Below, in pieces: positions 1,987 through 51,650 of a DNA stretch of 64,000 nucleotides. The notes under the pieces are model-generated. The model saw nothing but the letters and a program-made list of their open reading frames with translations, searched no databases and had not been told where the DNA came from. The stretch is from NCBI GenBank assembly GCA_965237865.1, contig OZ250164.1, positions 309,217-373,216 on the forward strand, read 5' to 3'. The position numbers and the translations under genes are program-made. How positions within the stretch are numbered: position 1 is the first letter of the stretch; each line of letters begins with the position of its first letter. Source of the DNA: Dehalococcoidia bacterium. Its GTDB lineage: Bacteria > Chloroflexota > Dehalococcoidia > UBA2979.

Positions 1987-2084
1987 GGTAGCGCGGGAAC
2001 GGGGCGGCGGCTTCCTCCCGGCGGCGTGAGGGGGTGGGCGCTAGAATCCGCCCCGCGTGCGATGGCGCGCGGGAGGGGGCCGCG

Positions 2085-3086: not shown

Positions 3087-3104
3087 CCCGCCGTCGCCGA
3101 GGAG

Positions 3105-3920: not shown

Positions 3921-3988
3921 CTCGTCCTCCGTCCGCGCTCCCGACTCCGCCCGTGATGGCGGCCGCGCGCATCCTATCGAACCGCGCG

Positions 3989-5152: not shown

Positions 5153-5173
5153 CGCTGGTCTCCCGTCCGTTCG

Positions 5174-6039: not shown

Positions 6040-6056
6040 GCTGCTCCCCTCGCGGG

Positions 6057-6962: not shown

Positions 6963-7081
6963 CTCCGGCTCCGTTCCGCGCCAGCGATGCGGCGCGCCGG
7001 GATGGTACCGTAGCCCCGGCCTGCAGGGGCCAGGAACGCCAGCGAGACACGATCGCCGGCGGTGCGTGAGAGGCGGGGGCG

Positions 7082-8374: not shown

Positions 8375-8422
8375 CGGCTGGCAAGGCGGGGCCGCGCCGG
8401 CAAGGCCGTCTCGATGCGCGGA

Positions 8423-8800
8423 CTACGCGCGGAGGGCGTCGAGGTCGAAGTCGTCCGGCACGGGTACGACGACCGAGCAGCGCGGCAGCTCGATGGTGCG
8501 GGTGATGTGACCGTGGCCCGTCAGATCATCGGCCAGCAGCACGTCGCCGGCGCCAAGCTGCCGCGTCGTGCCGTCGCCGCACACCATCTCGGCCCGCCCC
8601 TGGACGGTGATCACGAACTGACGGCGGGGTGCGGTGTGGAAGTCCATCTCGTTTTCGGCGGTGGCTTCGCGCATGCTGATGCTCTCCGCCGGGAAGTGCT
8701 GCGTGCGGTTGCCGAGCCCCATCGCCTCCGGGAAGGCGATGTCGATGTCCTCGAAGTGGGACTCCCCGTCGTCGCCGGTGTAGACGCGCGTGATCCGCAT
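8423..8800 (-). CDS. cupin domain protein
   Basis: 125 aa with a small-barrel-like pattern (FHTAPRRQFVITVQGRAEMVCGDGTTRQLGAGDVLLADD...GHGH). Confidence 0.65.
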   Translation of the reverse strand: MRITRVYTGDDGESHFEDIDIAFPEAMGLGNRTQHFPAESISMREATAENEMDFHTAPRRQFVITVQGRAEMVCGDGTTRQLGAGDVLLADDLTGHGHITRTIELPRCSVVVPVPDDFDLDALRA

Positions 8801-8880
8801 CGCTCTGTGCTCCCTCCAGCGTGGCGCCGCCCGGGCGCTGCGCCGCGCGCCATGCTAGCAGGCGCGGGATCGCGGCCACG

Positions 8881-9483
8881 ATGAGCCTCGCCGACGCGCT
8901 GCGACGCCGCCGCTCGATCCGCGGCCTGCAGGGCCCGCCGCTCAGCCGCGAGGAGATCGAGGGCCTTGTCGAGCTGGCGCTGCTCGCGCCGGCGCCGCAC
9001 CACACCCGCCCCTGGCGCTTCGCCTCGATCTCGCAAGCTCGCCGCGCGGCGCTGGCCTCGGCGATGGCCGCGGCCTGGGAGGCGGACATGATCGCCGACG
9101 GCCTTGAGGAGGCGGTGCGCCGCCGCGCCCTCGAACGCTCGCGAGGCCGCATCGAGGGCGCGCCCACGCTGCTGCTGGGCTGCCTCGTCGGCGAGGGGCT
9201 CAACACCTACCCGGACGAGGAGCGCACCCGCGCGGAGTGGACGATGGCGGCGCACTCGTTCGGCGCGGCGCTGCAGAACCTGCTGCTCGAGGCCAGCGAG
9301 CGCGGGCTCGGCGCCTACTGGATGGCCGCGCCGCTCTACACACCGGACGAGGTGCGGCGGGTGCTCGAACTGCCGGAGGACTGGCGGCCGCAGGCGTTCA
9401 TCGCCCTCGGCCGCCGTCGCGCGGACTACCGTCCGTTCGATCGACCGTCGCCCGATCTCGGCGGCAGCCTGATCGAGCGCTGA
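8881..9483 (+). CDS. nitroreductase-family protein (FbiB C-terminal-domain-like)
   Basis: MSLADALRRRRSIRGLQGPPLSREEIEGLVELALLAPAPHHTRPWRF is the classic nitroreductase N-terminus. ATG at 8881 is in frame with the track ORF. Confidence 0.7.
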   Translation: MSLADALRRRRSIRGLQGPPLSREEIEGLVELALLAPAPHHTRPWRFASISQARRAALASAMAAAWEADMIADGLEEAVRRRALERSRGRIEGAPTLLLGCLVGEGLNTYPDEERTRAEWTMAAHSFGAALQNLLLEASERGLGAYWMAAPLYTPDEVRRVLELPEDWRPQAFIALGRRRADYRPFDRPSPDLGGSLIER

Positions 9484-9552
9484 CCGGGCGGGAGCAACTG
9501 CGCGCGAGGGTGCTACGCTCGGGCGCACGCAGACGGGAGGGATGGCGCGCCG

Positions 9553-11178
9553 ATGCTGCACAGCCTGATGAGCGACGACCACCCCCTCACGCTCGCCATG
9601 CTGTTCGAGCGCGCCGCGACGCAGTTCCCGGACAACGAGCTCGTCAGCCGCTTCCCCGACGGCCGCATCCACCGCTACCGCTACGCCGAATTCGCGCGCC
9701 GCACGCGCAAGCTTGCGAACGCCCTCGCCACGCTCGGCATCGAGCCCGGCGACCGGGTCGCGACGCTCTGCTGGAACGAGCATCGCCACCTGGAGCTCTA
9801 CTTCGCCGTGCCGATGAGCGGCGCCGTCGTGCACACGCTCAACGCGCGCCTGCACGCCGACGAGCTGACCTACATCGTCAACGACGCCGCGGACCGCGCG
9901 CTCTTCGTGCACAGCTCGCTGCTCGCCGCCTTCGAGGAGATCCGCGACCGCGTCTCCGTGGAGCACGTGATCGTGATCCCGGACGACGGCGAGACGCCCG
10001 AGGGGTACCGGGACTACGAGGAGCTGATCGCGGACGAGCCCGAGACGTTCGAGCCGCCGCCGCTGGACGAGCGGCAGGCCTCGGGGATGTGCCACACCTC
10101 GGGCACCACGGGCCGCCCCAAGGGCGTGCTCTACAGCCACCGCTCCACCTCATTGCTGGCGATGATGAGCTGCATGACGGACACCGTCGGCGTCCGCGAG
10201 CGCGACTCGATCCTGCCGGTGGTGCCGATGTACCACGCGAACGCCTGGGGCCTGCCCTACGCCGCGACGTACGCGGGCGCGAAGCAGGTCTTCCCCGGTC
10301 GCGACCTCAGCGCGGAGAGTTTGCTCCGCCTCTTCGCGGACGAGGGCGTCACCCTCACCGGCGGCGTGCCCACCGTCTTCCTCGACGTGCTGCGCATGCT
10401 CGACGAGCGGCCCGGCGAGTGGGACCTGTCCTCGATGCGCTCGATGCTGATCGGCGGATCGGCGGCGCCGCCCTCGCTGATCGAGGGCTTCGACCGCCAC
10501 GGGCTGCACGTCACGCACGCCTGGGGCATGACGGAGATGAACCCGCTCGGCAGCATCGCCAACCTCAAGCGCTCGCACGACGGGCTCGACGACGAAGGCA
10601 CGCTCGCCGTGCGTGCCCGCCAGGGCCACGCGCAGCCGCTGATCCAGTTCCGCCACGTCTCCGAGGACGGCACGGTGCAGCCCTGGGACGGCGAAGCGCT
10701 CGGCGAGTTGCAGGTGCGCGGGCCGACGATCGCGCGCGCCTACTACGGCGTCGAGCGCGCCGACGACTTCGCCGGCGACGGCTGGTTCCGCACGGGCGAC
10801 ATCGTGACGATCGACGAGCACGGCTCGATCCTGATCGCCGACCGCGCGCGCGACGTGGTGAAGTCCGGCGGCGAGTGGATCAGCAGCGTGGCGCTGGAGA
10901 ACGCGCTGATGGCGCATCCCGCCGTCGTCGAGGCCGCCGTCTTCGCGGCCGAGGACGAGCGCTGGGGCGAGCGCCCGCTGGCCGCCGTCGTCCACGCCCC
11001 GGACGTGAGCGCCAGCGACGAGGAGCTGCGCGCCTGGCTGGAGCCGCAGTTCCTGCGCTGGTGGCTCCCCGCCGGCTTCGTCGCCGTCGACGAAGTCCCG
11101 AAGACCTCGACCGGCAAGTTCGACAAGGCCGCGCTGCGCGAGCGCTACGGGCGGCGGCTGATCGAGGGCGCGGACTAG
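9553..11178 (+). CDS. AMP-dependent acyl-CoA synthetase / fatty-acid--CoA ligase
   Basis: 541 aa; MCHTSGTTGRPKGVLYSHRS (AMP-binding motif), GWFRTGD, and the terminal K in PKTSTGKFDK. Confidence 0.85.
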   Translation: MLHSLMSDDHPLTLAMLFERAATQFPDNELVSRFPDGRIHRYRYAEFARRTRKLANALATLGIEPGDRVATLCWNEHRHLELYFAVPMSGAVVHTLNARLHADELTYIVNDAADRALFVHSSLLAAFEEIRDRVSVEHVIVIPDDGETPEGYRDYEELIADEPETFEPPPLDERQASGMCHTSGTTGRPKGVLYSHRSTSLLAMMSCMTDTVGVRERDSILPVVPMYHANAWGLPYAATYAGAKQVFPGRDLSAESLLRLFADEGVTLTGGVPTVFLDVLRMLDERPGEWDLSSMRSMLIGGSAAPPSLIEGFDRHGLHVTHAWGMTEMNPLGSIANLKRSHDGLDDEGTLAVRARQGHAQPLIQFRHVSEDGTVQPWDGEALGELQVRGPTIARAYYGVERADDFAGDGWFRTGDIVTIDEHGSILIADRARDVVKSGGEWISSVALENALMAHPAVVEAAVFAAEDERWGERPLAAVVHAPDVSASDEELRAWLEPQFLRWWLPAGFVAVDEVPKTSTGKFDKAALRERYGRRLIEGAD

Positions 11179-20561: not shown

Positions 20562-22084
20562 TATGGAGTGACCGGTTGTCAAGCAGCACCGGCGGTGGTC
20601 GTGGCGATCCGGCTCCGGAACGGGGGGAGATGGACGAACGAGGGCGCTGCTTCGACGACGTGTCACTCTGATATTCGCGGGTTGCCTGGGGCCTTGCCGC
20701 ATGACCGTGCTTCGCCGGGAGGGGTCGCCGTCTACGGTCGCGGGTTGACGGCGCCGGGCGCCGCTGCCGCATAGCTGTACCGCGCGTCCTCCTGAGCCTG
20801 CCCTCGCTCATCCACCCCCTCCTGCTCCGGAGCGGCGTATCGCCAGCTCCGCCTTCGCCGCGGACCGCGCGCGTGCTGTCAGGCCGCCGCCTGCTCCCGG
20901 GCGCCGATGTTCAGCACCGCCCACAGGTAACCCGCGAGTTCACGGGCGACGGCCACGTTCGCCACGACCGATGGCTTGCCGTGAGCGGCCAGCCGCCGGT
21001 GGCGGCGATAGAGCCGGGTCTGCGCCCGGTCGGCCAACACCACGGCCCAGCCCGGCTGGCCCTCCCTGCGCTTGCGCAGCGCTGCCCCCACCCGCGGCGG
21101 GTGGCGGTAGTGCCAGGCGCTCTCCACCAGGATGCGGCGCACGTGGCTGTTCCCTGTCTTCGTGATCGGTCCCCGCCGCTGACGGGCGCCGCTGCTGTAC
21201 TCGCTCGGCGTGAGCCCGAGGTAGGACATCAACTGCCGGGCGCTGCCGAAGCGCGTGACGTCGCCGAGCTCGGCCAGCACCGTCATCGCCGTCACCGTGT
21301 CGACCCCGCGGAAGCAGCGCAGCAGCCCCACCGCCTCGCGGTAGTCGTCGCTGGCGGCACACGCGGCCAGTTCCTGCTCCAGCGTGCGCAGCCGCTCCTC
21401 CACGCCCTCGAGCGCGCGCAGGTAGTCGTCGAAGGTGGCCTGCGCGGCCGGGTGTTCGAAGCGCAGCGTCAGCAGCCAGCGGCGGTGCCGCAGCGTCCAG
21501 TTCCGGCCGTCGTAGGCGATGCCGCGCCGCAGCAGCAGCTTCGCCAGGCGGTGGCGCGCCCGGGTGCGGTCGGTCACGGCGTCCTCGCGCGCCCGGCAGA
21601 GGTCGCGCACCGCCTCCTGGTCGATGGTCGGGGGATGCACCGCCGTGAGCAGGTCCGCGCGCAGCAGCTCGGCCAGCTTCCTGGCGTCGCGGCGGTCGGT
21701 CTTGACGCGGTCGCCGGGCCGCCTGGGGATGAGCGCCGGCGCGATCACCTGGCATTCGATGCCCTCGGCCTCGAGCTGGCGCTGCAGCGCGAAGCCCCCC
21801 GGCCCCGCCTCGTAGCAGGCCACGACCGGCCCCGGCGCCATGCGCCGCAGGCGCTGCGCGAGCCGCTTCACCGCCTTCGGCTCGTTCGCCAGCTGCCACT
21901 CCTCGGGCCGCTCGGCCCCCGGCGCCAGCACCGCCACGTGGATCGCCCGCGCGTGTGCATCCATCCCTGCATATGTGGTAGTCATCTTCCTGACCGGCTC
22001 CTTTCGCATGCGGCTCTGCAGCCCTCGCGTCTGTAACCCGCGAGTTTGCGGACTCGGAGCCGGTCACTCCATACGGTCTACAAC
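20562..22084 (-). mobile_element. IS110-family insertion sequence (approximate boundaries)
   Basis: A DEDD transposase gene sits between two unrelated surface-protein ORFs, with a 318-bp non-coding flank on its 3' side and ~75 bp on its 5' side. The 14-mer GTAACCCGCGAGTT occurs at 20927-20940 and 22033-22046. Termini are not defined; IS110-family elements lack terminal inverted repeats. Confidence 0.5.
20879..21985 (-). CDS. IS110-family transposase (DEDD/RuvC-like N-domain plus Tnp C-domain)
   Basis: MTTTYAGMDAHARAIHVAVL... with C-terminal ...ITKTGNSHVRRILVESAWH, typical of IS110/IS1111 transposases. The second in-frame Met was chosen as start. Confidence 0.85.
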   Translation of the reverse strand: MTTTYAGMDAHARAIHVAVLAPGAERPEEWQLANEPKAVKRLAQRLRRMAPGPVVACYEAGPGGFALQRQLEAEGIECQVIAPALIPRRPGDRVKTDRRDARKLAELLRADLLTAVHPPTIDQEAVRDLCRAREDAVTDRTRARHRLAKLLLRRGIAYDGRNWTLRHRRWLLTLRFEHPAAQATFDDYLRALEGVEERLRTLEQELAACAASDDYREAVGLLRCFRGVDTVTAMTVLAELGDVTRFGSARQLMSYLGLTPSEYSSGARQRRGPITKTGNSHVRRILVESAWHYRHPPRVGAALRKRREGQPGWAVVLADRAQTRLYRRHRRLAAHGKPSVVANVAVARELAGYLWAVLNIGAREQAAA

Positions 22085-39136: not shown

Positions 39137-40150
39137 ATGAGTCCTCCCGATGCGACGGACGGCGCCGCAAGCGACGGCGATCCGTTCGCCGATGATCGGC
39201 AGCGCGAGTACCCGGCCGCGGCGGACGTGCTCGCCGCGATCGCGGACGAGACGGGGCCGATCGCCTTCGCCGACCTGCCCGCGCTCAGCAACCCTGACGA
39301 CGCCACCGTCGGGCGCGTCTTCGCCCTCTGGAGCCGGCTGACGCCGAACCGTCGCCGCGACTTCCTCGCGGCGATCCAGCAGCTGGCTGACGAGGATGCG
39401 ACGCTGGGCTTCGAGCGCATCCAGCTCTCCGCGCTGCACGACCCGGACGTCGCGACGCGCATCCTCGCGATTCGCGGGCTCTGGGAGAGCGAGCGCCCGG
39501 AGTACGCCGCAGTCCTGCTGGACCTCGCGAGCGACGACGCCGAGGCGAGCGTGCGCGCCGCCGCCGCCGACGGTCTCGCCAGCTTCGTCGTCAGCAACGA
39601 GTTCGGGATGCTGCCGCTGGAGCTGGGCGAGCGCATGCTGGACGCGCTGCGCGACCGCATCGAGGACGTCACGGAACAGGACGAGGTGCGCGGAACCGCG
39701 CTCACCGCCCTCGGCGCGTCCTCGGAGGAGTGGGTCGCCGAGCTGGTCGCCGAGCAGTACGAGACCGGCAGCACGCGGATGCGCCTCGCAGCCGTGGCGG
39801 CGATGGGTCGCCACGGCTCCGACGACTGGCTGCCCGTGCTGATCCAGACCTTCGAGGACGAAGACGAGGACGTGCGCGCGGCCGCCGCCATCTCCGCCGG
39901 CAATCTGCTGCTCGAGGCCGCCGTCGAACCCCTCACGCTGCTGCTCGAGGACGAGGAGCAGGAGGTGCAGGTGGCCGCGATCAGCGCGCTCGGCGAGATC
40001 GCCGGCGACCGCGCCGAGCAGATCCTGCGGGATCTGCTGCGCAGCCCCGAGCCGCACATCGCCGGAGCCGCGGGGCAGGCTGCCGAGGAAGCGCGGATGA
40101 TGGCGGTCGATCCCGGCGAGGAGTCGCCCCTCGAATGGACCGGGGACTGA
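39137..40150 (+). CDS. HEAT-repeat protein
   Basis: Repeated VRAAAA...LG helical repeats (PDVATRILAIRGL, ASVRAAAADGLASF, EDVRAAAAISAGNL, QEVQVAAISALGEI). Confidence 0.6.
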   Translation: MSPPDATDGAASDGDPFADDRQREYPAAADVLAAIADETGPIAFADLPALSNPDDATVGRVFALWSRLTPNRRRDFLAAIQQLADEDATLGFERIQLSALHDPDVATRILAIRGLWESERPEYAAVLLDLASDDAEASVRAAAADGLASFVVSNEFGMLPLELGERMLDALRDRIEDVTEQDEVRGTALTALGASSEEWVAELVAEQYETGSTRMRLAAVAAMGRHGSDDWLPVLIQTFEDEDEDVRAAAAISAGNLLLEAAVEPLTLLLEDEEQEVQVAAISALGEIAGDRAEQILRDLLRSPEPHIAGAAGQAAEEARMMAVDPGEESPLEWTGD

Positions 40151-41349: not shown

Positions 41350-41724
41350 GTGATTCCAGAGCTGTTCGGCCGCGTCGGGGTACTTATCCTTCTGGGCGTG
41401 GTCTTTCCCGCGATTCCGCTCATTGCCTCCTTCGGCATCTACCTGCTGCGCCGCCGGCCCAGCAATCCCGACCCCATCAAGCACGCCACCTACGAGTGCG
41501 GCGTCGAATCCGAGGGCAACGCCTGGGGGCAGTTCAACGCCCGCTACTACCTGTTCGGGCTCGGCTTCGTGATCTTCGACGTGGAGGTCGTCTTCCTCTA
41601 TCCGTGGGCGCTGCAGCACGGCGTGCTCAACACCGATGCGCTGTTCAAGGCCGCGATCTTCGTCGGCGTGCTGGCCTTCGGCCTTGCCTACGCCTGGCGG
41701 CGCCGCGCGCTGGAGTGGCGCTAG
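41350..41724 (+). CDS. nuoA: NADH-quinone oxidoreductase subunit A
   Basis: VIPELFGRVGVLILLGVVFPAIPLIASFG...YECGVESEGNAW...FVIFDVEVVFLYPWA. GTG at 41350 follows AGGAG; the N-terminal part of the track ORF is rejected. Confidence 0.8.
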   Translation: MIPELFGRVGVLILLGVVFPAIPLIASFGIYLLRRRPSNPDPIKHATYECGVESEGNAWGQFNARYYLFGLGFVIFDVEVVFLYPWALQHGVLNTDALFKAAIFVGVLAFGLAYAWRRRALEWR

Positions 41725-41725
41725 C

Positions 41726-42241
41726 GTGCCGGCGGGCCCGCGGCAGCTGAGCGGCGAGGTCGTCGCGGCGCCCCTCGCCGCAGCTGTCCCCGACGCGATC
41801 CTGCGCGCGACCGACGAGTGGGTCGAGGTGCGGCCCGAGCGCATCGTGGACGTGCTGCGCTTCCTGCACGACGACGCCGACCTCGACGCGCGGCAGCTCA
41901 GCAGCCTCTGCGCCGTCGACCGCTACGACCGCTTCGAGGTGGTCTACCACTTGCAGTCGCTCGACCAGAACCATCAGATCGTGATCAAGGCGATCATCGC
42001 CGAGCACGACGAGCCCTCGCTGCCGAGCTCCTACGGCGTCTACAAGGGCGCGCTGCTGCAGGAGCGCGAGGCCTACGACCTGATGGGCGTGCGCTTCGAG
42101 GGCCACCCGGACCTGCGCCGCATGTTCCTCTGGGAGGGCTTCCCCGGCTTCCCGCTGCGCAAGGACTTCCTGCAAATCCCCGAGCACCACCCCGGCCTGC
42201 CGAAGTTCCCCTTCGAGGAACCCGGGGTGCAGGCAAGATGA
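41726..42241 (+). CDS. nuoC: NADH-quinone oxidoreductase subunit C (30 kDa)
   Basis: FEVVYHLQSLDQNHQIVIKA...YDLMGVRFEGHPDLRRMFLWEGFPGFPLRKDF. GTG lies 1 nt after the nuoA stop, so there is no nuoB between A and C. Confidence 0.8.
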   Translation: MPAGPRQLSGEVVAAPLAAAVPDAILRATDEWVEVRPERIVDVLRFLHDDADLDARQLSSLCAVDRYDRFEVVYHLQSLDQNHQIVIKAIIAEHDEPSLPSSYGVYKGALLQEREAYDLMGVRFEGHPDLRRMFLWEGFPGFPLRKDFLQIPEHHPGLPKFPFEEPGVQAR

Positions 42242-42251
42242 CGGTGACGCG

Positions 42252-43355
42252 ATGACCGCCGCGACCGAGCCGTACGTCCTGAACATCGGGCCTCAGCACC
42301 CCTCGACCCACGGGGTGTTCCGGCTGCGCGTCGTCATGGACGGCGAGCGCATCCAGGACGTCGAGATGGTGGTCGGCTACCTCCACCGCTCGATGGAGAA
42401 GCTGGCCGAGGAGCGCAGCTACACGCAGAACATCCCTTTCACCGACCGCGCCGACTACCTGGCGGCGATGAGCGGCAACCTCGGCTACTGCCTCGCCGTG
42501 GAGCGCCTCGCGGGTGTCGAGGTGCCGGAGCGCGCCTCCTACCTGCGCGTGATCTTCGCGGAGCTGCAGCGCATCGCCAGCCACTCGATGGCGAACGGCA
42601 CGTTCGTCAACGACGCGGGCGCGTGGCAGACGCCGCTGATGTACATGTTCCGCGAGCGCGAGCGCATCCTCGATCTTTTCGAGATGACCTGCGGCGCGCG
42701 CCTCACCACGAACTACATGCGCATCGGCGGTGTCGCCTTCGACCCGCCGGACGAGTTCTACCCGGCGATCAACTCGCTGGTCGATGAGCTGCCGGAGCGC
42801 ATCGACGAGTACGCGGAGCTGCTGGTCGACAACGAGATCCTGCTCGCGCGCGGGCGCGGCGTGGGCATCATCACCGCCGAGGACGCGATCAACGGCTCGC
42901 TCGTCGGACCGATGCTGCGCGGCTCGGGCGTGCCCTGGGATCTGCGCAAGGCCGAGCCCTATTGCGTCTACGATCGCGTCGACTTCGAGATCCCCGTGGG
43001 GCGGCGGGGCGACGCGTACGATCGCTTCCTCGTACGCCTCGAGGAGGTCCGCCAGTCGACGCGCATCATCCGCCAGGCGCTCGACGGGTTGCCGTCCGGC
43101 CCGCACAAGACGCAGATCCCGCTCGCGCTGCGGCCCGATCCCGGCGAGGCCTACGCCCGCGTCGAGGGCCCGCGCGGTGAGCTCGGCTTCTACGTCGTCT
43201 CCGACGGCGGCTCCGCGCCGTTCCGCTTCCACATCCGCGCGCCCTCGCTGATCAACCTCTCGCTGCTGCGCGAGATGGCGACCGGCGCCTCGCTGCCGGA
43301 CGCGATCGTGGCGCTCGGCTCCATCGACATCGTCGTCGGGGAGATCGACCGATGA
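42252..43355 (+). CDS. nuoD: NADH-quinone oxidoreductase subunit D (49 kDa)
   Basis: MTAATEPYVLNIGPQHPSTHGVFRL...RIGGVAFDPP...RAPSLINL. Confidence 0.9.
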   Translation: MTAATEPYVLNIGPQHPSTHGVFRLRVVMDGERIQDVEMVVGYLHRSMEKLAEERSYTQNIPFTDRADYLAAMSGNLGYCLAVERLAGVEVPERASYLRVIFAELQRIASHSMANGTFVNDAGAWQTPLMYMFRERERILDLFEMTCGARLTTNYMRIGGVAFDPPDEFYPAINSLVDELPERIDEYAELLVDNEILLARGRGVGIITAEDAINGSLVGPMLRGSGVPWDLRKAEPYCVYDRVDFEIPVGRRGDAYDRFLVRLEEVRQSTRIIRQALDGLPSGPHKTQIPLALRPDPGEAYARVEGPRGELGFYVVSDGGSAPFRFHIRAPSLINLSLLREMATGASLPDAIVALGSIDIVVGEIDR

Positions 43356-44797
43356 GTTCGCTGCGAACCGGCAAGCGGCTCCCGCAGCGCGTGGTTCCGC
43401 GCGCGCTGATGGTGCTCGGCGCGCTCGGCGCGCTTGGCTTCCTCGCCGTCAACGTGGCCATCGGCTACGTCGTGATCGACGGCCATCTCGATGGGCAGTG
43501 GTACGACGTGCGCGATCTCGGCATCGGCGTCGAGGCGCTGCGCGAGTGGCTGGACGATCGCAACGCGCAGCAGCCGGGCATCCTCGACTTCCTCGGCCAG
43601 CACTGGATCTCGTACGCCGTCACGGCGCTGCTGGGCGCTACCGGCATCCTCAGCCTCGTCGGCGGCGCGCTGCTGATCCTGATCTGGGTCGAGCGGCGGC
43701 TGATCGGCCGCATGCAGATCCGCCGCGGACCGAACCGCGTCGGGCCCTACGGCCTGCTGCAGCCGGTCGCCGACGCGCTCAAGCTGATCCAGAAGGAAGT
43801 GCTGATGCCGCGCGGCGCGGACCGCGCGATGTTCTTCCTCCCGCCCGCGATCATCTTCATCCCGATGATCGTCGCCTGGGGTCCGATCCCGTGGGGCGGG
43901 CAGATGTCCTACCTCGACGTGCACGTCGGGATCCTCTTCCTGATCGCCGTCAGCTCGCTCACCACGCTGGCGATCTTCATGGCCGGCTGGTCGTCGAATA
44001 ACCACTACGCGCTGCTCGGCGCTATGCGCACGATCGCGATGATGATCTCCTACGAGATCCCGCTCTCCCTCGCGCTGCTCTCCGTGGTGCTGCTCAGCGG
44101 CTCGATGCAGCTCTCGGTGATCGTGGAGTGGCAGGCCACCCACAACGCCTGGCTCGCCGCGCTGCTGCCGCTGGCGATGCTGACCTACTTCTTCTCCGCG
44201 ACCGCCGAACTGAACCGCACGCCCAACGACATCGCCGAGGCGGAGTCCGAGATCGTCGCCGGCTTCCACACCGAGTACTCCGGCATGAAGTTCGGGCTCT
44301 TCTACGCCGTCGAGCTGGGCAACGCGCTCTTCGTCGCGGCGCTGACGGCGACGCTCTTCCTCGGCGGCTGGTCGTTGTTCGGCCTCGAGGAGTGGATACC
44401 GGGCTACCTGATCCTCGGGGCGAAGATCTCGGCGGCCTACTTCCTGCTGATCTGGCTGCGCGGCACGCTCCCGCGCTTCCGCCTGGACCAGCTGATGCGC
44501 TTCGCCTGGCAGTTCCTGATCCCGCTCTCGCTCGTCAACCTGCTGATCGTCGCCGCCGAGGCATCCCTGTTCGCGCGCTGGGAAGTCGAGGGTATTGTCA
44601 GCCTCGGGCTCTTCGCGATCGTGAACTGGGCCGCTGCGGCGTTCCTCCTGCGCGAGTGGGCGCGCCGCCTCGGCTACCGCCCGGAGCACGAGGCAGTCCG
44701 GCGGCCGGTGCTCACCCAGGATGTCGGCGGGATGCAGGCGGCGCGCAGGCTCGGCGCGGCGGAGCCCGGCGTGCTGGAGATGGGGACGGAGGCCTGA
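43352..44797 (+). CDS. nuoH: NADH-quinone oxidoreductase subunit H with N- and C-terminal extensions
   Basis: Core RMQIRRGPNRVGPYGLLQPVADALKLIQKE...; ~95 extra aa with one TM helix at the N-terminus and ~75 extra aa at the C-terminus (481 aa versus the typical ~330-400). Confidence 0.8.
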   Translation: MSSLRTGKRLPQRVVPRALMVLGALGALGFLAVNVAIGYVVIDGHLDGQWYDVRDLGIGVEALREWLDDRNAQQPGILDFLGQHWISYAVTALLGATGILSLVGGALLILIWVERRLIGRMQIRRGPNRVGPYGLLQPVADALKLIQKEVLMPRGADRAMFFLPPAIIFIPMIVAWGPIPWGGQMSYLDVHVGILFLIAVSSLTTLAIFMAGWSSNNHYALLGAMRTIAMMISYEIPLSLALLSVVLLSGSMQLSVIVEWQATHNAWLAALLPLAMLTYFFSATAELNRTPNDIAEAESEIVAGFHTEYSGMKFGLFYAVELGNALFVAALTATLFLGGWSLFGLEEWIPGYLILGAKISAAYFLLIWLRGTLPRFRLDQLMRFAWQFLIPLSLVNLLIVAAEASLFARWEVEGIVSLGLFAIVNWAAAAFLLREWARRLGYRPEHEAVRRPVLTQDVGGMQAARRLGAAEPGVLEMGTEA

Positions 44798-45312
44798 TGG
44801 ACTCCGCGGGAATCATCGTCGCCTTCTGGCTGCTCTCCGCGATTGCGGTGGGCTCCGCCATCGGTGTCTTCCTCGCGAGGAACCTGATTCACGCCGTCGC
44901 GCTGCTCGTGCTCTCGTTCGTCGCCACCGCGGGGCTGTTCCTCACGCTCTCCGCGGACTTCATCGCCGTCGCGCAGGTGCTGATCTACGCTGGCGCGATT
45001 CCGGTGCTGATGGTCTTCGCCGTGATGCTCACCCCGCTCGCGGGGCGCGACAACGGCAACTCGCTCTTCGTCGTGCCCGGCGTGCTGCTCGGTGGCGCCT
45101 TCGCCGTGGTCGTCGCGATCATCGCGATCGATGCCGAGTGGGGCGCGCTCGGCGGCGCCGCGCTCGCCGGCCAGTCCTTCGAGACCACCGCCGACGCGAT
45201 CGGCGACGCGCTGCTCGGGCGCTACGTGCTCGCCTTCGAGATCGCCTCGGTGCTGTTGCTCGCTGCGCTGATCGGCGCGATCGTGCTGGTGCGAGAGGAC
45301 GAGCCGGCATGA
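44797..45312 (+). CDS. nuoJ: NADH-quinone oxidoreductase subunit J
   Basis: MDSAGIIVAFWLLSAIAVGSAIGVFLARNLIHAVALLVLSFVATAGLF. ATG overlaps the nuoH stop, so there is no nuoI between H and J. Confidence 0.8.
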   Translation: MDSAGIIVAFWLLSAIAVGSAIGVFLARNLIHAVALLVLSFVATAGLFLTLSADFIAVAQVLIYAGAIPVLMVFAVMLTPLAGRDNGNSLFVVPGVLLGGAFAVVVAIIAIDAEWGALGGAALAGQSFETTADAIGDALLGRYVLAFEIASVLLLAALIGAIVLVREDEPA

Positions 45313-45635
45313 GCGTGGAGCTGGCCCACTACCTGACCGTGGGCGCGATGATCTTCGGCGTCGGGATCGCCATCGCGCTCTCCAAGCGCAACGCGATCGC
45401 CGTGCTGATGGGCGTCGAGTTGATGCTCAACGGCGTCAACCTCACCTTCCTCGCGTTCTCGCGCTTCGGCGGCGCCTTCGACGGCGGGGACGCCCCGCTC
45501 GCGGGCCACGTCTTCGTCATCTTCGTGCTTACCGTCGCCGCCGCCGAGGCCGCGGTCGCCCTCGCGATGGCGGTGCTGATCTACCGGCGGCGCGAGACCG
45601 TCGACCTCGATCGCATCAACCTGATGCGCTGGTAG
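45309..45635 (+). CDS. nuoK: NADH-quinone oxidoreductase subunit K
   Basis: MSVELAHYLTVGAMIFGVGIAIALSKRNAIAVLMGVELMLNGVNLTFLAFSR. Confidence 0.85.
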   Translation: MSVELAHYLTVGAMIFGVGIAIALSKRNAIAVLMGVELMLNGVNLTFLAFSRFGGAFDGGDAPLAGHVFVIFVLTVAAAEAAVALAMAVLIYRRRETVDLDRINLMRW

Positions 45636-45648
45636 GGCGGAGGGGCGT

Positions 45649-45837
45649 ATGTGGGTGAAGTTCATGGACGCGCCCGACGGCTACGCCGCAGCGATGTGGT
45701 GGGAGCTGTTCAACACGGAAGCCATCGCCGTGCGCATCGTGCCGCCCCTCGAAATCGGCCCGATGTCCGCGCCCCGCGAGATCTGGGCGCCCGACGGCAA
45801 GACCCACGTCGCCCGCGAAGTGCTGAACAAGATCTAG
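45649..45837 (+). CDS. small hypothetical protein (62 aa) between nuoK and nuoL
   Basis: ATG preceded by GGAGG at ~5 nt; third-position G/C bias consistent with coding; no TM segment; MWVKFMDAPDGYAAAMWWELFNTEAIAVRIVPPLEIGPMSAPREIWAPDGKTHVAREVLNKI. Confidence 0.45.
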   Translation: MWVKFMDAPDGYAAAMWWELFNTEAIAVRIVPPLEIGPMSAPREIWAPDGKTHVAREVLNKI

Positions 45838-45883
45838 CGGCGATGCGCACACCCGGAAACCGAACACAAGCTGGCGAGGCCTG

Positions 45884-47842
45884 ATGCTGCTCGGTCAAGT
45901 CCCCGAAGCCGTCGTCTGGGCGATCTATTTCGCCCCGGTCGCCTCGACGCTGCTGATCACCGCCGGGCTGATCGCGCGGCGGCTGTTCGGTGCCCGCTGG
46001 CTGCGTGACGAGTGGGCCGGACGACTCACCATCGCCGCGCTCACCGTCGCCTGGCTCGCCGCGCTGTGGGCGCTCGACAGCTCCATCGAGGCGGGGGGCG
46101 AGGCGCTCGGCTTCCACGCGCACCAGTGGCTGACGCTGTTCGACCTGCATGTCGAGATGGGTGTGCGAATCGACGGCCTCTCCGCGATCATGGTCGTGGT
46201 CGTCACGAGCGTCTCGCTGCTCGTCCAGATCTACTCCGTCGGCTACATGCACGGCGACAGCGGCTACGCCCGCTACTTCGCATTCATGTCGCTGTTCACG
46301 GCGGCGATGCTGGGGCTGGTGCTCTCCTCGAGCTTGCTCCAGTTGTTCGTGCACTGGGAGCTGGTCGGGCTCGCCTCGTACCTGCTGATCGGCTTCTGGT
46401 TCCACCGGCCCGCGGCGGCGGCGGCCGCGAAGAAGGCGTTCATCGTCACGCGCTTCGGCGACTTCGCCTTCCTGCTCGCCGTGCTGCTGATCTGGGGCAA
46501 GGCCGGGACGTTCGACATCCACGAGATCAACGAGCTGGCGCTCGCGGGCGCGCTCTCCTCGGCGGTGCTCACGGGCTTCACGCTCGGTCTGCTCTCGGGC
46601 GCCATCGGCAAGTCCGCGCAGTTCCCGCTGCACATCTGGCTGCCCGACGCGATGGAGGGCCCGACGCCCGTCTCCGCGCTGATCCACGCCGCCACGATGG
46701 TCGTCGCCGGCGTCTACCTGATCGCGCGCATGTTCCCCAGCTTCGAGGCCGCCCCGGCGGAGATCCTGGACCTCGTGGCCTACATCGGCGGCTTCACGGC
46801 GTTGCTGGCGGCCGTGTTGGGGCTGGTGCAGACGGACATCAAGCGCGTGCTCGCCTACTCGACGATCTCGCAGATCGGCTACATGGTGCTGGCGCTCGGG
46901 GTGTTCGGCTACGTGGCGGCGATCTTCCACCTCTTCACGCACGCCTTCTTCAAGGCGCTGCTCTTCCTCGGCGCCGGCTCGGTCAACCACGCGACGTACA
47001 GCTTCGACATGCGCCGCATGGGCGGCCTGCGCTCGTACATGCCGATCACCTACGTGACCTTCGTGATCGGCGCGCTCTCGCTGTCTGGCGTGTTCCCCCT
47101 CGCGGGGTTCTGGAGCAAGGACGAGATCCTGCTCGACGCCTGGAACCACGACAAGCTGCTGTTCGTGATCGGCATCGCCGTCGCCTTCATGACCGCGCTC
47201 TACATGTTCCGCGCGATCTTCCTCACCTTCTGGGGCGAGTACCGCGGCGGCGAGGAGCCCGAGGCCGGCCGCGGCGATATCTCCACCGTTCCCCACGAGT
47301 CCCCGCCCTCGATGGCGTTCCCGCTGCTGATCCTCGCCGTGCCGGCCGTCCTCGCCGGCCTGTTCGCGCTCGGCGGCGGCTTCACGCACCTGATCGAGGG
47401 CTCGCTGCCGGCTGAGTTGCGGCACGGCAAGCCGCACATCGAGGGCATCGTCGTCGCCGCCTCGCTCGTCGCCGCCCTCGCGGGCATCGGCGTCGCTACC
47501 GCGGTCTACCTCTACCGCCGGCCCGCTTCCGAGGCCGTCGCCGCCCGCCTCGGTCCGCTTCCGGGCGTCGTCGAGCAGAAGTACTACCTCGACTTCCTCG
47601 CCGAGACGGTGATCGTGCGCTGGATCCTCAACACCGGACTGCAGCGTGCCGCCGAGCTCTTCGACCGCTACATCGTCGACGCCATCGCGGACGGGATCGG
47701 CACGGGCACGCGGCTCGCCGGCGACGCGCTGCGCCGCTCCGAGGCGGGCTACGTGCAGGCCTACACCTCGCTGTTCTTCATCGGAGTCGTGATCGCCGTC
47801 GTCGCGGTCGCGGTCCTCGGCACTGACGTGGTGGGCCGCTGA
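45884..47842 (+). CDS. nuoL: NADH-quinone oxidoreductase subunit L
   Basis: 652 aa; SALIHAATMVVAGVYL and typical antiporter-like TM repeats. Confidence 0.9.
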   Translation: MLLGQVPEAVVWAIYFAPVASTLLITAGLIARRLFGARWLRDEWAGRLTIAALTVAWLAALWALDSSIEAGGEALGFHAHQWLTLFDLHVEMGVRIDGLSAIMVVVVTSVSLLVQIYSVGYMHGDSGYARYFAFMSLFTAAMLGLVLSSSLLQLFVHWELVGLASYLLIGFWFHRPAAAAAAKKAFIVTRFGDFAFLLAVLLIWGKAGTFDIHEINELALAGALSSAVLTGFTLGLLSGAIGKSAQFPLHIWLPDAMEGPTPVSALIHAATMVVAGVYLIARMFPSFEAAPAEILDLVAYIGGFTALLAAVLGLVQTDIKRVLAYSTISQIGYMVLALGVFGYVAAIFHLFTHAFFKALLFLGAGSVNHATYSFDMRRMGGLRSYMPITYVTFVIGALSLSGVFPLAGFWSKDEILLDAWNHDKLLFVIGIAVAFMTALYMFRAIFLTFWGEYRGGEEPEAGRGDISTVPHESPPSMAFPLLILAVPAVLAGLFALGGGFTHLIEGSLPAELRHGKPHIEGIVVAASLVAALAGIGVATAVYLYRRPASEAVAARLGPLPGVVEQKYYLDFLAETVIVRWILNTGLQRAAELFDRYIVDAIADGIGTGTRLAGDALRRSEAGYVQAYTSLFFIGVVIAVVAVAVLGTDVVGR

Positions 47843-49314
47843 TGCTGTCGGTCTTCGTGCTGCTGCCGGCCGTCGGGGCCCTGATCATCGCCACGCTGCC
47901 GCGCGCCCGCACGGGCGACGCCCGCTGGATCGCGCTGTTCTTCAGCATGATCACCTTCGTGCTCGGGATCGTGATCTTCGCCCGCCTCGACCGCGTCGCC
48001 GAGGGCTACCAACTGGTCGATCGCTTCGACTGGATCCGCGCGGGCGACACCGGGTTCGCGGTGCAGTACGTGCTCGGCGTGGACGGCCTCTCGGCGCCGC
48101 TGGTGCTGCTCACGGGGCTGCTCGGGTTGGTCTCGGTACTGGTCTCGTGGCGCATCGACAAGCGGGTGAAGGAGTACTTCGTCTGGCTGCTCATCCTGGA
48201 GACGGCGGTCGCCGGGGTCTTCCTCTCGCTCGACCTGATCCAGTTCTTCTTCTTCTGGGAACTGGAGCTGCTCCCGATGTACATGCTGATCAGCATCTGG
48301 GGCAGCGGACGGCCGCGCTACAGCGCGATGAAGTTCCTGCTGTTCACGATGGCCGGTTCCGCGCTGATGCTCGCCGGCTTCCTCGTGCTCGGCCTCCAGG
48401 CGGGGACGTTCGACATTGCGGTGCTCACCGCAGACCCGCCGACGGAGGCGCTGGTCCCGCTCAGCCTCGTGTTCTGGCTGATCATGGCCGCCTTCCTCGT
48501 CAAGCTGCCGGTCTTCCCGCTGCACAGCTGGCTGCCCGACGCGCACACCGACGCGCCGACGGCGGTCTCCGTGATGCTCGCCGGTGTGCTGCTGAAGATG
48601 GGCGGCTACGGCATTCTGCGCATCGTGCTGCCGATCCTGCCCGGCGAGGCGCAGGACTTCCGAGTCATCCTCGCGGCTATCGCAGCCATCTCCGTGATCT
48701 ACGGCGCGGTGCTGACGCTGCAGCAGCGCGATCTGAAGCGGCTCATCGCCTACTCCTCGGTCTCGCACATGGGCTACGTGCTGCTCGGCGTGTCCGCGAT
48801 GGGGGCGGCCGGCCTCTCCGGCGCGGCGCTGCAGATGTTCTCGCACGGCGTCATCACTGGCCTGCTCTTCATCGTCGTGGGCCTGATGTACGACCGCACC
48901 CACACGCGCCAGATCTCCGACCTCGGCGGGTTGCTGCACCAGATGCCGCTGCTCGGCCTCGTGGCGATCATCGCGGGCTTCGCGGCGCTCGGGCTGCCGG
49001 CCCTGAGCGGCTTCGTCGCCGAGTTCGCGGTCTTCGCCGGGACGCTGCAGGTGCACCCGGCGGCGACGATCATCTCCGCCTTCGGCGTCGTGCTCGCGGC
49101 GGGCTACATCCTCTGGGCCGTGCAGCGCGTCTTCACCGGCCCCGCCAACGAGCGCTGGTCCGGCCTCGGCGACGCGACCGAGTGGTGGGAGCTTGCGGCG
49201 ATGGCCGCGATGCTGGTCTTCGTGATCGGCGTCGGCGTCTACCCGCGGCTGCTCACCGACGTGGTTGAACTCGGCATCGAGCCGATCGCGCTGATCGTGC
49301 GGGCCGCCGCATGA
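47842..49314 (+). CDS. nuoM: NADH-quinone oxidoreductase subunit M
   Basis: 490 aa; LHSWLPDAHTDAPTAVSVMLAGVLLKMGGYG. Confidence 0.9.
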   Translation: MLSVFVLLPAVGALIIATLPRARTGDARWIALFFSMITFVLGIVIFARLDRVAEGYQLVDRFDWIRAGDTGFAVQYVLGVDGLSAPLVLLTGLLGLVSVLVSWRIDKRVKEYFVWLLILETAVAGVFLSLDLIQFFFFWELELLPMYMLISIWGSGRPRYSAMKFLLFTMAGSALMLAGFLVLGLQAGTFDIAVLTADPPTEALVPLSLVFWLIMAAFLVKLPVFPLHSWLPDAHTDAPTAVSVMLAGVLLKMGGYGILRIVLPILPGEAQDFRVILAAIAAISVIYGAVLTLQQRDLKRLIAYSSVSHMGYVLLGVSAMGAAGLSGAALQMFSHGVITGLLFIVVGLMYDRTHTRQISDLGGLLHQMPLLGLVAIIAGFAALGLPALSGFVAEFAVFAGTLQVHPAATIISAFGVVLAAGYILWAVQRVFTGPANERWSGLGDATEWWELAAMAAMLVFVIGVGVYPRLLTDVVELGIEPIALIVRAAA

Positions 49315-50786
49315 ACTGGTACGAACAGCTCCACTACATCGGCCCGGCCTTCGCGCTGCTGCTCGGCGCGGGCGTCGTGATGACGGCCGACCTGATCGCG
49401 CCGCGCCGCGCGCCTGTCCTCGCGCTCACGATCCTCGTGCTGCTCGCGGCGGGCCTCTGGGCGATTGTGCAGGCCGTCTCCGGCATCGAGGGCCCCGCGC
49501 TCTCGGGCGCGATCGTCGTCGACCGCTTCGCGCTGTTCTTCACCTTCCTGCTGATCGGCGTCTCGCTGGCCGTCGTGATCGCCACTTCCGAGGGCCTCTC
49601 GCGCGTCGAGCACCGGCCCGAATTCTTCGCGCTGCTGCTGACGGCGACCGGCGCGATGGTGCTGCTGGCGCAGTCCAACGACCTGATCGCGATCTTCGTC
49701 GCGCTCGAGACGACCTCGATCGCGCAGTTCGTGCTGGCCGGCATCGCCCGCGACGACCGCTCCTCCGAGGCGGGGATCAAGTACCTGCTGAGCGGCGCCG
49801 TCGCCGCCGCCGTGCTGCTCTACGGCTTCGCGTTCCTGTTCGGCCTCTCCGGCACGACCTCGCTCGAGGGCATCGCCGCCTTCGTCCAGACCGGGTCGGA
49901 CGGGACACAACTGGCGCTCGTGCTCGGCTTCGTGCTGGTCGTGGCGGGGCTGGGCTTCAAGATGTCGATCGCGCCCTTCCATGCGTGGGTACCGGACGTC
50001 TACGAGGGCGCCCCGACGACCGTCACCACCTTCCTTTCGGTCGCCTCGAAGGCGGCGGGCTTCGCGGTGGCGCTGCGCATCTTCTACGGCGGCCTCGGGG
50101 GCGGCGACACCTTCATCGCCGAGCACTGGGCGGCGCTGATCGCCGTGCTTGCAGCCGCCTCGATGATCTTCGGCAACGCCGCCGCGATCCTGCAGACGAA
50201 CGTGAAGCGGCTGCTCGCCTATTCCTCGATCGCGCAGGCGGGCAACATCGCGGTCGGGCTCGCCGCCGTGGCAGCCGGGAGCGTCGCCGGGCCCTCGGCG
50301 GTGCTGTTCTTCCTCGGGGCCTACGCGGCGACGAACGTGGGCGCGTTCCTCTGCGTGATCGTCGTCTCCGAGCGCATCGGCGTCGAGGATCTGAGCGGTT
50401 ACGCCGGCCTGATGAAGCGATCGCCGCTGGTGGCGGGGGTGCTGGCCTTGTGCCTGCTCTCGCTCACGGGCATCCCCCCGGCCGCGGGGTTCCTCGCGAA
50501 GCTGTATATCTTCAACAGCGCGGTCCAGTCTGGCCACGACTGGCTCGTCTGGCTGGTCGTGATCGCCGTGCTCAACTCCGCCGTCTCCGCCTTCTACTAC
50601 CTGCGCTGGGTGCGCACGATGGTGCTCGACGAGCCCGAGGACGAGGCTCCCTTCCACGCGAGCGCGCCGGTCCAGGTGCTGCTCGGCCTCGCCGCCCTCG
50701 CGGTGCTGTTCTTCGGCCTGATCCCCGGTCCGTTGCTCGGCGCCGCCCAGCGCGCTGCGGAGACGCTCGTCATCGCCGCGCCGTAG
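49311..50786 (+). CDS. nuoN: NADH-quinone oxidoreductase subunit N
   Basis: 491 aa; FHAWVPDVYEGAPTTVTTFLSVASKAAGFA. Confidence 0.9.
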   Translation: MNWYEQLHYIGPAFALLLGAGVVMTADLIAPRRAPVLALTILVLLAAGLWAIVQAVSGIEGPALSGAIVVDRFALFFTFLLIGVSLAVVIATSEGLSRVEHRPEFFALLLTATGAMVLLAQSNDLIAIFVALETTSIAQFVLAGIARDDRSSEAGIKYLLSGAVAAAVLLYGFAFLFGLSGTTSLEGIAAFVQTGSDGTQLALVLGFVLVVAGLGFKMSIAPFHAWVPDVYEGAPTTVTTFLSVASKAAGFAVALRIFYGGLGGGDTFIAEHWAALIAVLAAASMIFGNAAAILQTNVKRLLAYSSIAQAGNIAVGLAAVAAGSVAGPSAVLFFLGAYAATNVGAFLCVIVVSERIGVEDLSGYAGLMKRSPLVAGVLALCLLSLTGIPPAAGFLAKLYIFNSAVQSGHDWLVWLVVIAVLNSAVSAFYYLRWVRTMVLDEPEDEAPFHASAPVQVLLGLAALAVLFFGLIPGPLLGAAQRAAETLVIAAP

Positions 50787-50820
50787 CGCGGAGCGAGAGC
50801 GCGCCGCGCGCGGCTCTCCC
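50787..50820 (+). terminator. GC-rich hairpin immediately after nuoN stop (possible terminator, no clear U-tract)
   Basis: GAGAGCGCGCCGCGCGCGGCTCTC palindrome directly after the TAG at 50784-50786. Confidence 0.3.
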
Positions 50821-51650
50821 CACCCGCCCGCCCTCGGAGTTTCTATCTGTGGGGGCTGTGTCCCCACGCCCCCGGCGGGTTGGCAGTGCAACCGCCGCCC
50901 CGAGGCAGGCGCATGTCTGTTGTGGGGGGCGCAGCCCCCCACGCCCCCATCCCGGAGGAGCACGCGCTGCGCGCGGCTCTGGCCCACCCGCCCGCCCTCG
51001 GAGTTTCTTTCTGTGGGGGCTTCGCCCCCACGCCCCCGGCGGGTCGGCAGCGCAACTGCGGCCCCGAGGCAGGCGCATGTCTGTTGTGAGGGGCTGCGCC
51101 CCCCACGCCCCCATCCCGGAGGAGCACGCGCAGGGTGCTTCTGTTGACGCGGGGATACCCCGCAGGGCGGCTCTGGCCCACCCGCCCGCCCTCGGAGTTT
51201 CTTTCTGTGGGGGCTTTGCCCCCACGCCCCCGGCGGGTTGGCAGTGCAAGCGCGGGCCCGAGGTAGGCGCGCGTCCGCTGTGGGGGCTTTGCCCCCACGC
51301 CCCCGGCGGGTTGGCAGTGCAAGCGCGGGCCCGAGGTAGGCGCGCGTCCGCTGTGGGGGCTGCGCCCCCCGCAGGGGGCGCAGCCCTCATCCAGACAGGC
51401 GCGGCGATGTGCCCTCTGTGAAGCCGCGGCGTCCCCGCGCGCGGGCGTCGAGGGCTCAGGATGGTCCGAGGCGTCTCGGGCACGGTTCGCTCAGCCGGTA
51501 CGGGGAAGGGAACCCGCTTTGGCGCGGAGCCACGCCGCCGGCAGCTCGTGGGGGTGTGGGGGCGCAGCCCCCACATAGAGAACAATCCGGGGTGGGTGGG
51601 CGGGCCAGAGCCGCGCGCAGCGCGTGCTCCTCCGAGTCCCTCGCGGGCAA
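50808..51650. repeat. complex tandem array of G/C-rich hairpin repeats (about three ~165-195 bp super-units, including a perfect 72-bp tandem duplication, plus one inverted partial copy)
   Basis: The hairpin core CTGTGGGGGC(N3)GCCCCCAC is followed by GCCCCCGGCGGGTTGGCAGTGCAA...CCCGAGGCAGGCGC and recurs at about 50847, 51011, 51205 and 51277. Positions 51205-51276 and 51277-51348 are identical. A second unit, TGTGGGGGGCGCAGCCCCCCACGCCCCCATCCCGGAGGAGCACGCGC, occurs at about 50921 and 51085. The connector GGCTCTGGCCCACCCGCCCGCCCTCGGAGTTTCT occurs three times. A reverse-complement copy of the connector plus unit-2 piece lies at about 51590-51645. Confidence 0.8.

Follow-up and report, generated by a model that had tools for sequence, protein, structure and literature searches.

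A nuo operon of SAR202-like Dehalococcoidia best read as a lineage-wide split locus of an ordinary Nuo-type complex I

The genes of complex I are commonly taken to be inherited together as a block, and genome surveys count the enzyme as present if its cluster is complete and not otherwise. All 14 complex I genes of Thermus lie in one operon, and the clusters of the archaeal F420H2 dehydrogenase Fpo contain FpoB and FpoI. In cyanobacteria, whose ndh genes like those of chloroplasts are dispersed over several loci (ndhC-K-J, ndhA-I-G-E, ndhH and others), NdhK and NdhI, the homologues of NuoB and NuoI, stay beside their A/C and H/J partners. The nuo genes have also been described as "typically colocalized" and as lost or transferred together (PMC4453560). 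Cultured Dehalococcoidia carry 11-subunit nuo clusters without nuoEFG (PMC4959651), and the absence of these three genes from the cluster is already known for the class. Here, we analysed a window of 64,000 nucleotides (nt) from contig OZ250164.1 of a Dehalococcoidia bacterium (Chloroflexota) and identified on its plus strand, at 41350-50786, a nuo operon with the order nuoA-C-D-H-J-K-(small open reading frame)-L-M-N, from which nuoB and nuoI are missing in addition to nuoE, nuoF and nuoG. The reading that fits best is an operon split throughout the lineage, belonging to a Nuo-type complex I that is ordinary apart from two additions: a 62-residue protein encoded between nuoK and nuoL and a nearly invariant motif at the N-terminus of NuoH. 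The small gene and the NuoH motif are what is new here.

The operon of Bacillus thuringiensis, with the order A-B-C-D-H-I-J-K-L-M-N, holds nuoB between nuoA and nuoC and nuoI between nuoH and nuoJ, whereas both genes are cleanly absent from the locus described here. We identified its genes with Pfam and NCBIfam models. nuoA (41350-41724, 124 residues; PF00507, E=2.4e-30) begins with a GTG preceded by GAGGAG and ends with the TAG at 41722-41724, and nuoC (41726-42241, 171 residues; PF00329, E=5e-40; TIGR01961) begins with the GTG at 41726, leaving a 1-nt spacer with room for no nuoB. Similarly, the stop of nuoH (43352-44797, 481 residues; PF00146, E=1e-109) and the start of nuoJ (44797-45312, 171 residues; PF00499) share one base in the sequence TGATG at 44795-44799, with no nuoI between them. 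nuoD (42252-43355, 367 residues; PF00346, E=5e-95) overlaps the start of nuoH by 4 nt (ATGA). The nuoJ/nuoK, nuoL/nuoM and nuoM/nuoN junctions abut or overlap too, nuoK lying at 45309-45635 (108 residues; PF00420, NF004322), nuoL, complete including its C-terminal part, at 45884-47842 (652 residues; PF00662, PF00361; NF005141 with 664 bits over residues 9-645, cut-off 556), nuoM at 47842-49314 (490 residues; PF00361; TIGR01972, 528.8 bits) and nuoN at 49311-50786 (491 residues; PF00361; TIGR01770, 381.7 bits). An independent gene call on a metagenome contig of identical sequence gave the same coordinates, including the same start of nuoA and the same nuoJ. All seven membrane subunits (NuoA, H, J, K, L, M and N) were thus found with strong Pfam and NCBIfam scores, with one each of L, M and N, and the nine subunits are orthologue-level matches to those of Thermus thermophilus (Nqo1-14; PDB 4HEA). 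The preliminary description of the locus had reported the tight nuoA-nuoC and nuoH-nuoJ junctions, free of nuoB or nuoI remnants, and a coding content of the membrane arm plus NuoC and NuoD only; the reading of the sequence, the family identities and the searches reported below bear this out.

To place the operon among its relatives, we fetched the best 80 of 306 NuoD relatives with 10-kb flanks, taking one genome per GTDB species. The order A-C-D-H-J-K-x-L-M-N was present in every relative locus long enough to show it (80/80), so that the split, which the preliminary description had asked to see in relatives, is shared by them. NuoD was the most conserved protein of the operon, with 153 of 367 columns invariant, and was 76-98% identical to that of the window among the 80 relatives; at 76% identity in NuoD, the identity of NuoA, NuoC and NuoN fell to about 47-53%. 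The window NuoD was 96-98% identical to those of chromosomes labelled as metagenome-assembled genomes (MAGs) of Dehalococcoidia bacteria and of sponge-derived Chloroflexi bins, and the relatives included complete long-read chromosomes such as OZ252046.1 (NuoD 98%), OY839116.1 and OZ242017.1. As the same gene order recurs in 80 of 80 independent genomes, complete long-read chromosomes among them, it is neither chance nor an assembly artefact. The flanks are syntenic as well, with Der, PlsY, GpsA, a HEAT-repeat protein, NUDIX and GNAT genes upstream and YbeY, DnaX, RecR and RecO downstream; these housekeeping neighbours indicate that the locus belongs to the vertically inherited core and is not part of an island. 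Given the conservation across relatives and the syntenic flanks, the split is ancient, vertically inherited and independent of the assembly method.

These data also bear on whether the operon might be a second, partial paralogue, with a complete nuo operon elsewhere from which it borrows NuoB and NuoI, or with which it provides an alternative isoform of the membrane arm and quinone-module scaffold. A second, loosely arranged nuo cluster is known in Chloroflexus aurantiacus (PMC3150298), a separate full operon would also explain why all Nuo subunit types are annotated in SAR202 isolates, and only the best 80 of the 306 NuoD relatives were covered. However, the locus occupies a conserved housekeeping neighbourhood in all 80 genomes, and the strong conservation of NuoD beside the much lower identity of NuoA, NuoC and NuoN fits a primary enzyme and not a decaying or accessory copy. 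Moreover, none of these contigs contributed a second NuoD locus to the best 80 of 306 matches. We therefore consider a partial paralogue unlikely.

We then searched for the missing subunits. The signature motifs of NuoB, NuoI, NuoE and NuoF were found in none of the six frames of the window, and the twofold CxxCxxCxxxCP motif of NuoI occurred neither in the window nor in the ±10-kb flanks of the relatives. Searching the window with tblastn using Thermus Nqo6 and Nqo9, Bacillus NuoB and NuoI and 40 database NuoB sequences gave no match. The Nqo6 query was validated by its retrieval of PF01058 proteins at 92% identity; beside the unvalidated Nqo9 query, the Bacillus NuoI, taken from an annotated record, served as an independent NuoI query. 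Similarly, neither motifs nor tblastn revealed NuoB, NuoI or NuoF in the 80 relative loci with their flanks (about 1.4 Mb in total), and nuoE, nuoF and nuoG were absent from the window and the flanks. The ten products of the operon contain zero to three cysteines each and no iron-sulfur (Fe-S) motif, and with so few cysteines they harbour no cryptic Fe-S site. The block of 4-6 kb that separates the GNAT gene from nuoA in more distant relatives was considered as a site for nuoB and nuoI and was rejected, since it encodes ChsH2, thiolase, MaoC, PHP and short-chain dehydrogenase proteins on the opposite strand.

The same results, 64 kb here and ±10 kb in 80 genomes without nuoB or nuoI, would be expected if the complex truly lacked both subunits and consisted of the membrane arm plus NuoC and NuoD, perhaps with the 62-residue protein, acting as an ion translocator or with a different, so far unknown electron carrier. 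The loss also co-occurs with a lineage-specific protein and with the NuoH extensions. NuoD, however, argues against such a complex. It aligned with Thermus Nqo4 at E=2e-107, and its H20, R66, Y69 and D121, which correspond to H38, R84, Y87 and D139 of Nqo4, were invariant in 82 of 82 sequences. To our knowledge, the only role of these quinone-site His, Tyr, Arg and Asp residues is catalysis beside cluster N2, and neither among complex I enzymes nor among group 4 hydrogenases do we know of one without a NuoB-type subunit. NuoD lacks [NiFe] cysteine ligands: it has three cysteines in all, and its GPQHPSTHG occupies the position of the N-terminal cysteine ligands of hydrogenase large subunits. 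The invariance of the quinone site suggests that a NuoB partner bearing N2 is encoded elsewhere. Furthermore, the 62-residue protein has no cysteine, and relatives of the same class are annotated with both B and I, which makes a complex devoid of the two subunits very improbable. Of the proposal in the preliminary description that B and I would be "elsewhere or replaced", the first part thus stands for a location outside the window and the ±10 kb of the relatives, and replacement is not supported, given the cysteine-poor products and the invariant NuoD residues that work next to N2. We conclude that nuoB and nuoI are probably encoded elsewhere in the genome rather than absent. Another claim, that the two genes were never here, is not establishable, because 11-subunit clusters have been described in cultured Dehalococcoidia (PMC4959651) and either arrangement may have come first.

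Next, we examined which type of complex I the subunits represent. Every subunit scored best on bacterial Nuo models, with Fpo and Ndh models lower and far below their NCBIfam cut-offs, and for NuoH, NuoL, NuoM and NuoN at least one Nuo model gave a score above its curated cut-off. NuoD reached 504.9 bits on NF008974 (cut-off 522), its residues 5-367 aligning to positions 4-366 of the model, and 465 bits on NF004739 (cut-off 360), as compared with 351 bits on the FpoD model (cut-off 600) and 384 bits on the NdhH model (cut-off 583). NuoL scored 664 bits on the NuoL model and 456 on FpoL, whose cut-off is 1050. The scores on other Fpo models were likewise low (FpoH 260 against a cut-off of 475, FpoC 78 against 220, FpoK 88 against 145), and Fpo scores altogether amounted to 26-58% of the cut-offs, FpoJ being lowest and FpoD highest. 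The same was true for the NdhF-type (572 against 963), NdhD-type (425 against 645) and NdhB-type (364 against 569) models. By these scores, the subunits belong with bacterial Nuo and not with Fpo or cyanobacterial Ndh, at variance with the Fpo/NDH-1-like affiliation raised in the preliminary description.

The locus resembles the 11-subunit Nuo of Bacillus and of cultured Dehalococcoidia, the latter from its own class, in having no nuoEFG in the cluster and a short NuoD of about 366 residues. NF008974 is the best model for the NuoD described here, with a score below its cut-off, and the NuoD proteins of Bacillus and Paenibacillus aligned with ours end to end at 50% identity. Bacillus differs in the long N-terminal extension of its NuoC, which is lacking here, and in having no small gene between nuoK and nuoL. 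As compared with Thermus, B, E, F, G and I lie outside the operon, the 62-residue gene is inserted between nuoK and nuoL, NuoD is of the short type without the 312-334 insertion of Nqo4, which the Bacillus NuoD lacks too, and has Thr-Thr in place of its His169-His170, and NuoH carries an extra N-terminal helix and motif. Fpo shares with our locus the short NuoD and has 11 core subunit types, but Fpo-specific scores stayed below the cut-offs and neither an FpoF nor an FpoO gene was found in the operon or its flanks. The cyanobacterial and plastid NDH-1 resembles it in having dispersed loci, an input module encoded elsewhere and small lineage-specific accessory subunits, but the Ndh-specific models stayed below their cut-offs here.

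These comparisons are relevant to a further alternative, in which the same scaffold is fed by a non-NADH input, either an FpoF-like F420H2-oxidising or a ferredoxin-dependent module, with NuoB and NuoI encoded beside it. An FpoF-type input has been proposed for the cultured Dehalococcoidia whose 11-subunit clusters lack nuoEFG (PMC4959651), complex I operons that are partial and use other electron donors have been documented (PMC4453560), and the NuoD described here is of the short type found in the 11-subunit enzyme of Bacillus. The window also encodes three luciferase-like oxidoreductases of a flavin or F420 family. On the other hand, the model scores of all subunits favour Nuo, no FpoF/FrhB-like gene was found in the operon or flanks, and nuoE, nuoF and nuoG are annotated in SAR202 isolates. 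The luciferase-like enzymes do not help, as those of SAR202 are mostly FMN enzymes and uninformative on the input of complex I. We regard a non-NADH input as quite unlikely. The "F420-type enzymes" that the preliminary description took as a hint of F420 input are luciferase-like monooxygenase paralogues typical of SAR202. In the window, three such paralogues (PF00296) lie at 1992-8374 beside a MaoC/FAS1-type dehydratase and are followed by an acyl-CoA ligase gene at 9484-11178; an expansion of such paralogues has been described for SAR202 (PMC5395668). This expansion and the NuoD identities indicate that the source organism is a SAR202-like Dehalococcoidia (Chloroflexota) of high G+C content (about 72% in the window) and no actinomycete.

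Based on the above results, the reading that we favour, with a probability of roughly 0.7, is that a large Dehalococcoidia clade has inherited this locus vertically as its main nuo operon, that the Fe-S subunits are supplied from another locus and that the assembled enzyme is of ordinary Nuo type. The operon would co-express every core subunit that is free of cofactors, namely the membrane arm (NuoA, H, J, K, L, M, N) and NuoC and NuoD, which make up half of the quinone module, along with the lineage-specific soluble protein of 62 residues. NuoB with cluster N2, NuoI and the input module, be it NuoEFG or another, would come from another locus. The assembled enzyme would then be a Nuo-type proton-pumping quinone reductase, in which electrons leaving the input module would travel by way of NuoI and NuoB/N2 and reach the quinone held by His20 and Tyr69 of NuoD, with protons pumped by NuoH/A/J/K and by NuoL, NuoM and NuoN.

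Several observations weigh against this reading. No nuoB or nuoI of the same organism was seen in the 64-kb window, and none in the ±10-kb flanks of the relatives. In the protein database, the NuoB matches listed for the Thermus Nqo6 query came from Deinococcota only and those listed for a consensus NuoB query from other phyla only. The contexts of four NuoB matches were unrelated: one match lay in an A-B-C-D cluster of a low-GC organism and one in an A-B-E-F-H-J cluster, and two adjoined nuoA, with menaquinone-type neighbours, and are probably actinobacterial as judged by neighbour genes alone. Filtering the matches for a GC-like amino-acid composition gave no discrimination, and no Chloroflexota NuoD was found in the plasmid collection. 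NuoD itself has Thr-Thr where the two histidines of Thermus Nqo4 lie next to N2. In cultured SAR202 isolates, which belong to this class, nuoA-I and nuoK-N have been annotated, with B, E, F, G and I among them (PMC10444878, supplementary file 3); this speaks for the reading, but the table has no locus tags and the isolates need not share the split operon. Finally, nuo genes are normally colocalised (PMC4453560), which makes it unusual for B and I to be split off throughout a class. Our literature searches found no description of the order A-C-D-H-J-K-x-L-M-N, nuo is mentioned neither in the Tepidiforma paper nor in its supplements, and a class-wide separation of exactly B and I is uncommon and, as far as these searches reached, undescribed.

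We further studied the gap of 248 nt between nuoK and nuoL. It holds a gene at 45649-45837 on the plus strand, with GGAGG ahead of its ATG, whose product of 62 residues has the sequence MWVKFMDAPDGY...THVAREVLNKI. A 77-residue frame at 45651-45884, given in a mechanical list of open reading frames, was also considered as the gene of this gap and was rejected because it is much less conserved than the 62-residue frame. With tblastn, the 62-residue gene was matched in 73 relatives, full-length except at one truncated locus; in 67 of them the product is exactly 62 residues long, without indels and at 65-98% identity, and five more distant loci showed 44-55% identity over 62-66 aligned residues. 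In the protein database, 130 matches of 57-84 residues (nearly all of 62) were retrieved, all of them "hypothetical protein" of Dehalococcoidia or Chloroflexota MAGs and without Pfam domains. The family has 13 invariant columns and a nearly fixed C-terminus, DGKTHVAREVLNKI, and a profile search of 1.84 billion cluster representatives matched 44 clusters and no more. Judged by this conservation, the open reading frame is a real gene and restricted to this lineage. The AlphaFold2 model of the protein shows a beta-alpha-beta-beta-alpha arrangement with a predicted local distance difference test score (pLDDT) of 95, and no hydrophobic helix is present. The protein weakly resembles the small alpha/beta proteins of DUF2007 (PF09413; structure 2HFV), which one homologue matched at E=5.8e-4, a value below the Pfam cut-off. 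Its fixed place in the operon and its conservation, similar to that of core subunits, make it a candidate lineage-specific accessory subunit or assembly factor of complex I.

NuoH is the second subunit with a lineage-specific feature. Its core spans residues 99-401 by Pfam, or 84-405 when aligned with residues 10-329 of Thermus Nqo8 (E=1e-70), and its acidic E-channel motifs ISYE, AEAESE and TEYS are conserved. Beyond the core, we found about 83-98 additional N-terminal and 76-80 C-terminal residues with one hydrophobic helix in each extension, in line with the extension at both ends seen earlier. The start at the 4-nt overlap with nuoD gives proteins of 471-491 residues in most relatives and of 412-464 residues in the most distant group. 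The N-terminal extension comprises a basic N-terminus, an extra helix at about residues 17-42 and then, at residues 44-57, the motif G-x-L-D-G-x-W-Y-D-x-R-D-L-G (extra helix and motif at 43400-43522, plus strand). In an alignment of 64 complete NuoH sequences, L46, W50, Y51, D52, R54, D55, L56 and G57 were conserved in at least 95%. The first transmembrane helix of canonical NuoH runs from the outside to the cytoplasmic loop between helices 1 and 2, and with this known orientation the motif should face the outside of the membrane, away from the side that binds NuoB and NuoI. The C-terminal extension (residues 406-481; 44567-44794, plus strand) adds one more helix and then a tail in which the stretch DVGGMQAAR is moderately conserved; it partly resembles Thermus Nqo8, which has about 36 residues past the aligned core. 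Neither extension can substitute for an Fe-S subunit.

The clade in which nuoB and nuoI are consistently unlinked from the rest of the genes is abundant worldwide, with SAR202-like and sponge-associated Dehalococcoidia among its members, and annotation based on operons would call these organisms "incomplete". The split also provides a natural test of how the quinone module assembles when its four subunits are not co-translated, and the 62-residue gene and the NuoH motif offer concrete candidates for complex I components peculiar to the lineage. A more far-reaching proposal, which we put forward only tentatively, is that complex I genes may be sorted by cofactor throughout a class-level clade, with one Fe-S-free operon that includes the 62-residue subunit and with B and I kept beside the input genes elsewhere. 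If so, one or more Fe-S input cassettes could be joined to an unchanging membrane and quinone scaffold or be regulated apart from it, and the 62-residue protein and the external NuoH motif would be structural parts of the enzyme that had not been recognised before. The split would be important only if nuoB and nuoI were wholly absent or travelled with interchangeable input modules.

Other arrangements of nuo genes were encountered during the searches. JGI contig Ga0117933_1135238 (74-7520), unrelated and of 55% G+C, carries an antiporter-like (nuoN-like) gene and three ATP synthase genes (PF09527, PF00119, PF00137) followed by nuoA-B-E-F-H-J, with nuoC, nuoD, nuoG and nuoI missing from the cluster, indicating that fragmented nuo clusters occur in other uncultured bacteria. 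In the low-GC contig FWPV01000929.1 (7654-16477), nuoA-B-C-D is followed by DRTGG, histidine-kinase-like ATPase, Fe-only-hydrogenase-like, PHP, NuoE-like and NuoF-like genes, so that nuoABCD is joined to a hydrogenase- or bifurcating-type module and not to a membrane arm.

In the neighbourhood of our operon, the HEAT-repeat (PBS-lyase-like) gene at 39137-40150, followed by the NUDIX and GNAT genes, was found upstream of nuoA in about 50 of the 80 relatives. The three genes stand directly before nuoA in the closest relatives, and in more distant ones the 4-6 kb block lies in between, on the minus strand. It was located at 3964-8732, 5212-8781 and 4554-8925 in the loci labelled L030, L041 and L080, respectively, and its ChsH2-like OB/zinc-ribbon, thiolase-like, MaoC/FAS1 dehydratase, PHP-domain and short-chain dehydrogenase genes are of lipid/steroid beta-oxidation type. 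Within the operon, no regulatory RNA was matched in Rfam at E<=0.1, and scans for promoters and terminators gave signals no better than those in shuffled sequence. Farther away, an IS110-family transposase gene (PF01548 and PF02371) lies at 20879-22063 on the minus strand. Downstream of the nuoN stop and before ybeY and dnaX, the region 50795-51634 contains a repeat of about 160 nt, with direct copies at 50819-50974, 50983-51138 (90%) and 51177-51332 (72%) and an inverted partial copy at 51550-51634. The core of the repeat is a GC-rich palindrome of 20 nt, TGTGGGGGCTTCGCCCCCAC, which occurs six times, and from its sequence the repeat looks like an element of the repetitive extragenic palindromic (REP) or miniature inverted-repeat transposable element (MITE) type.

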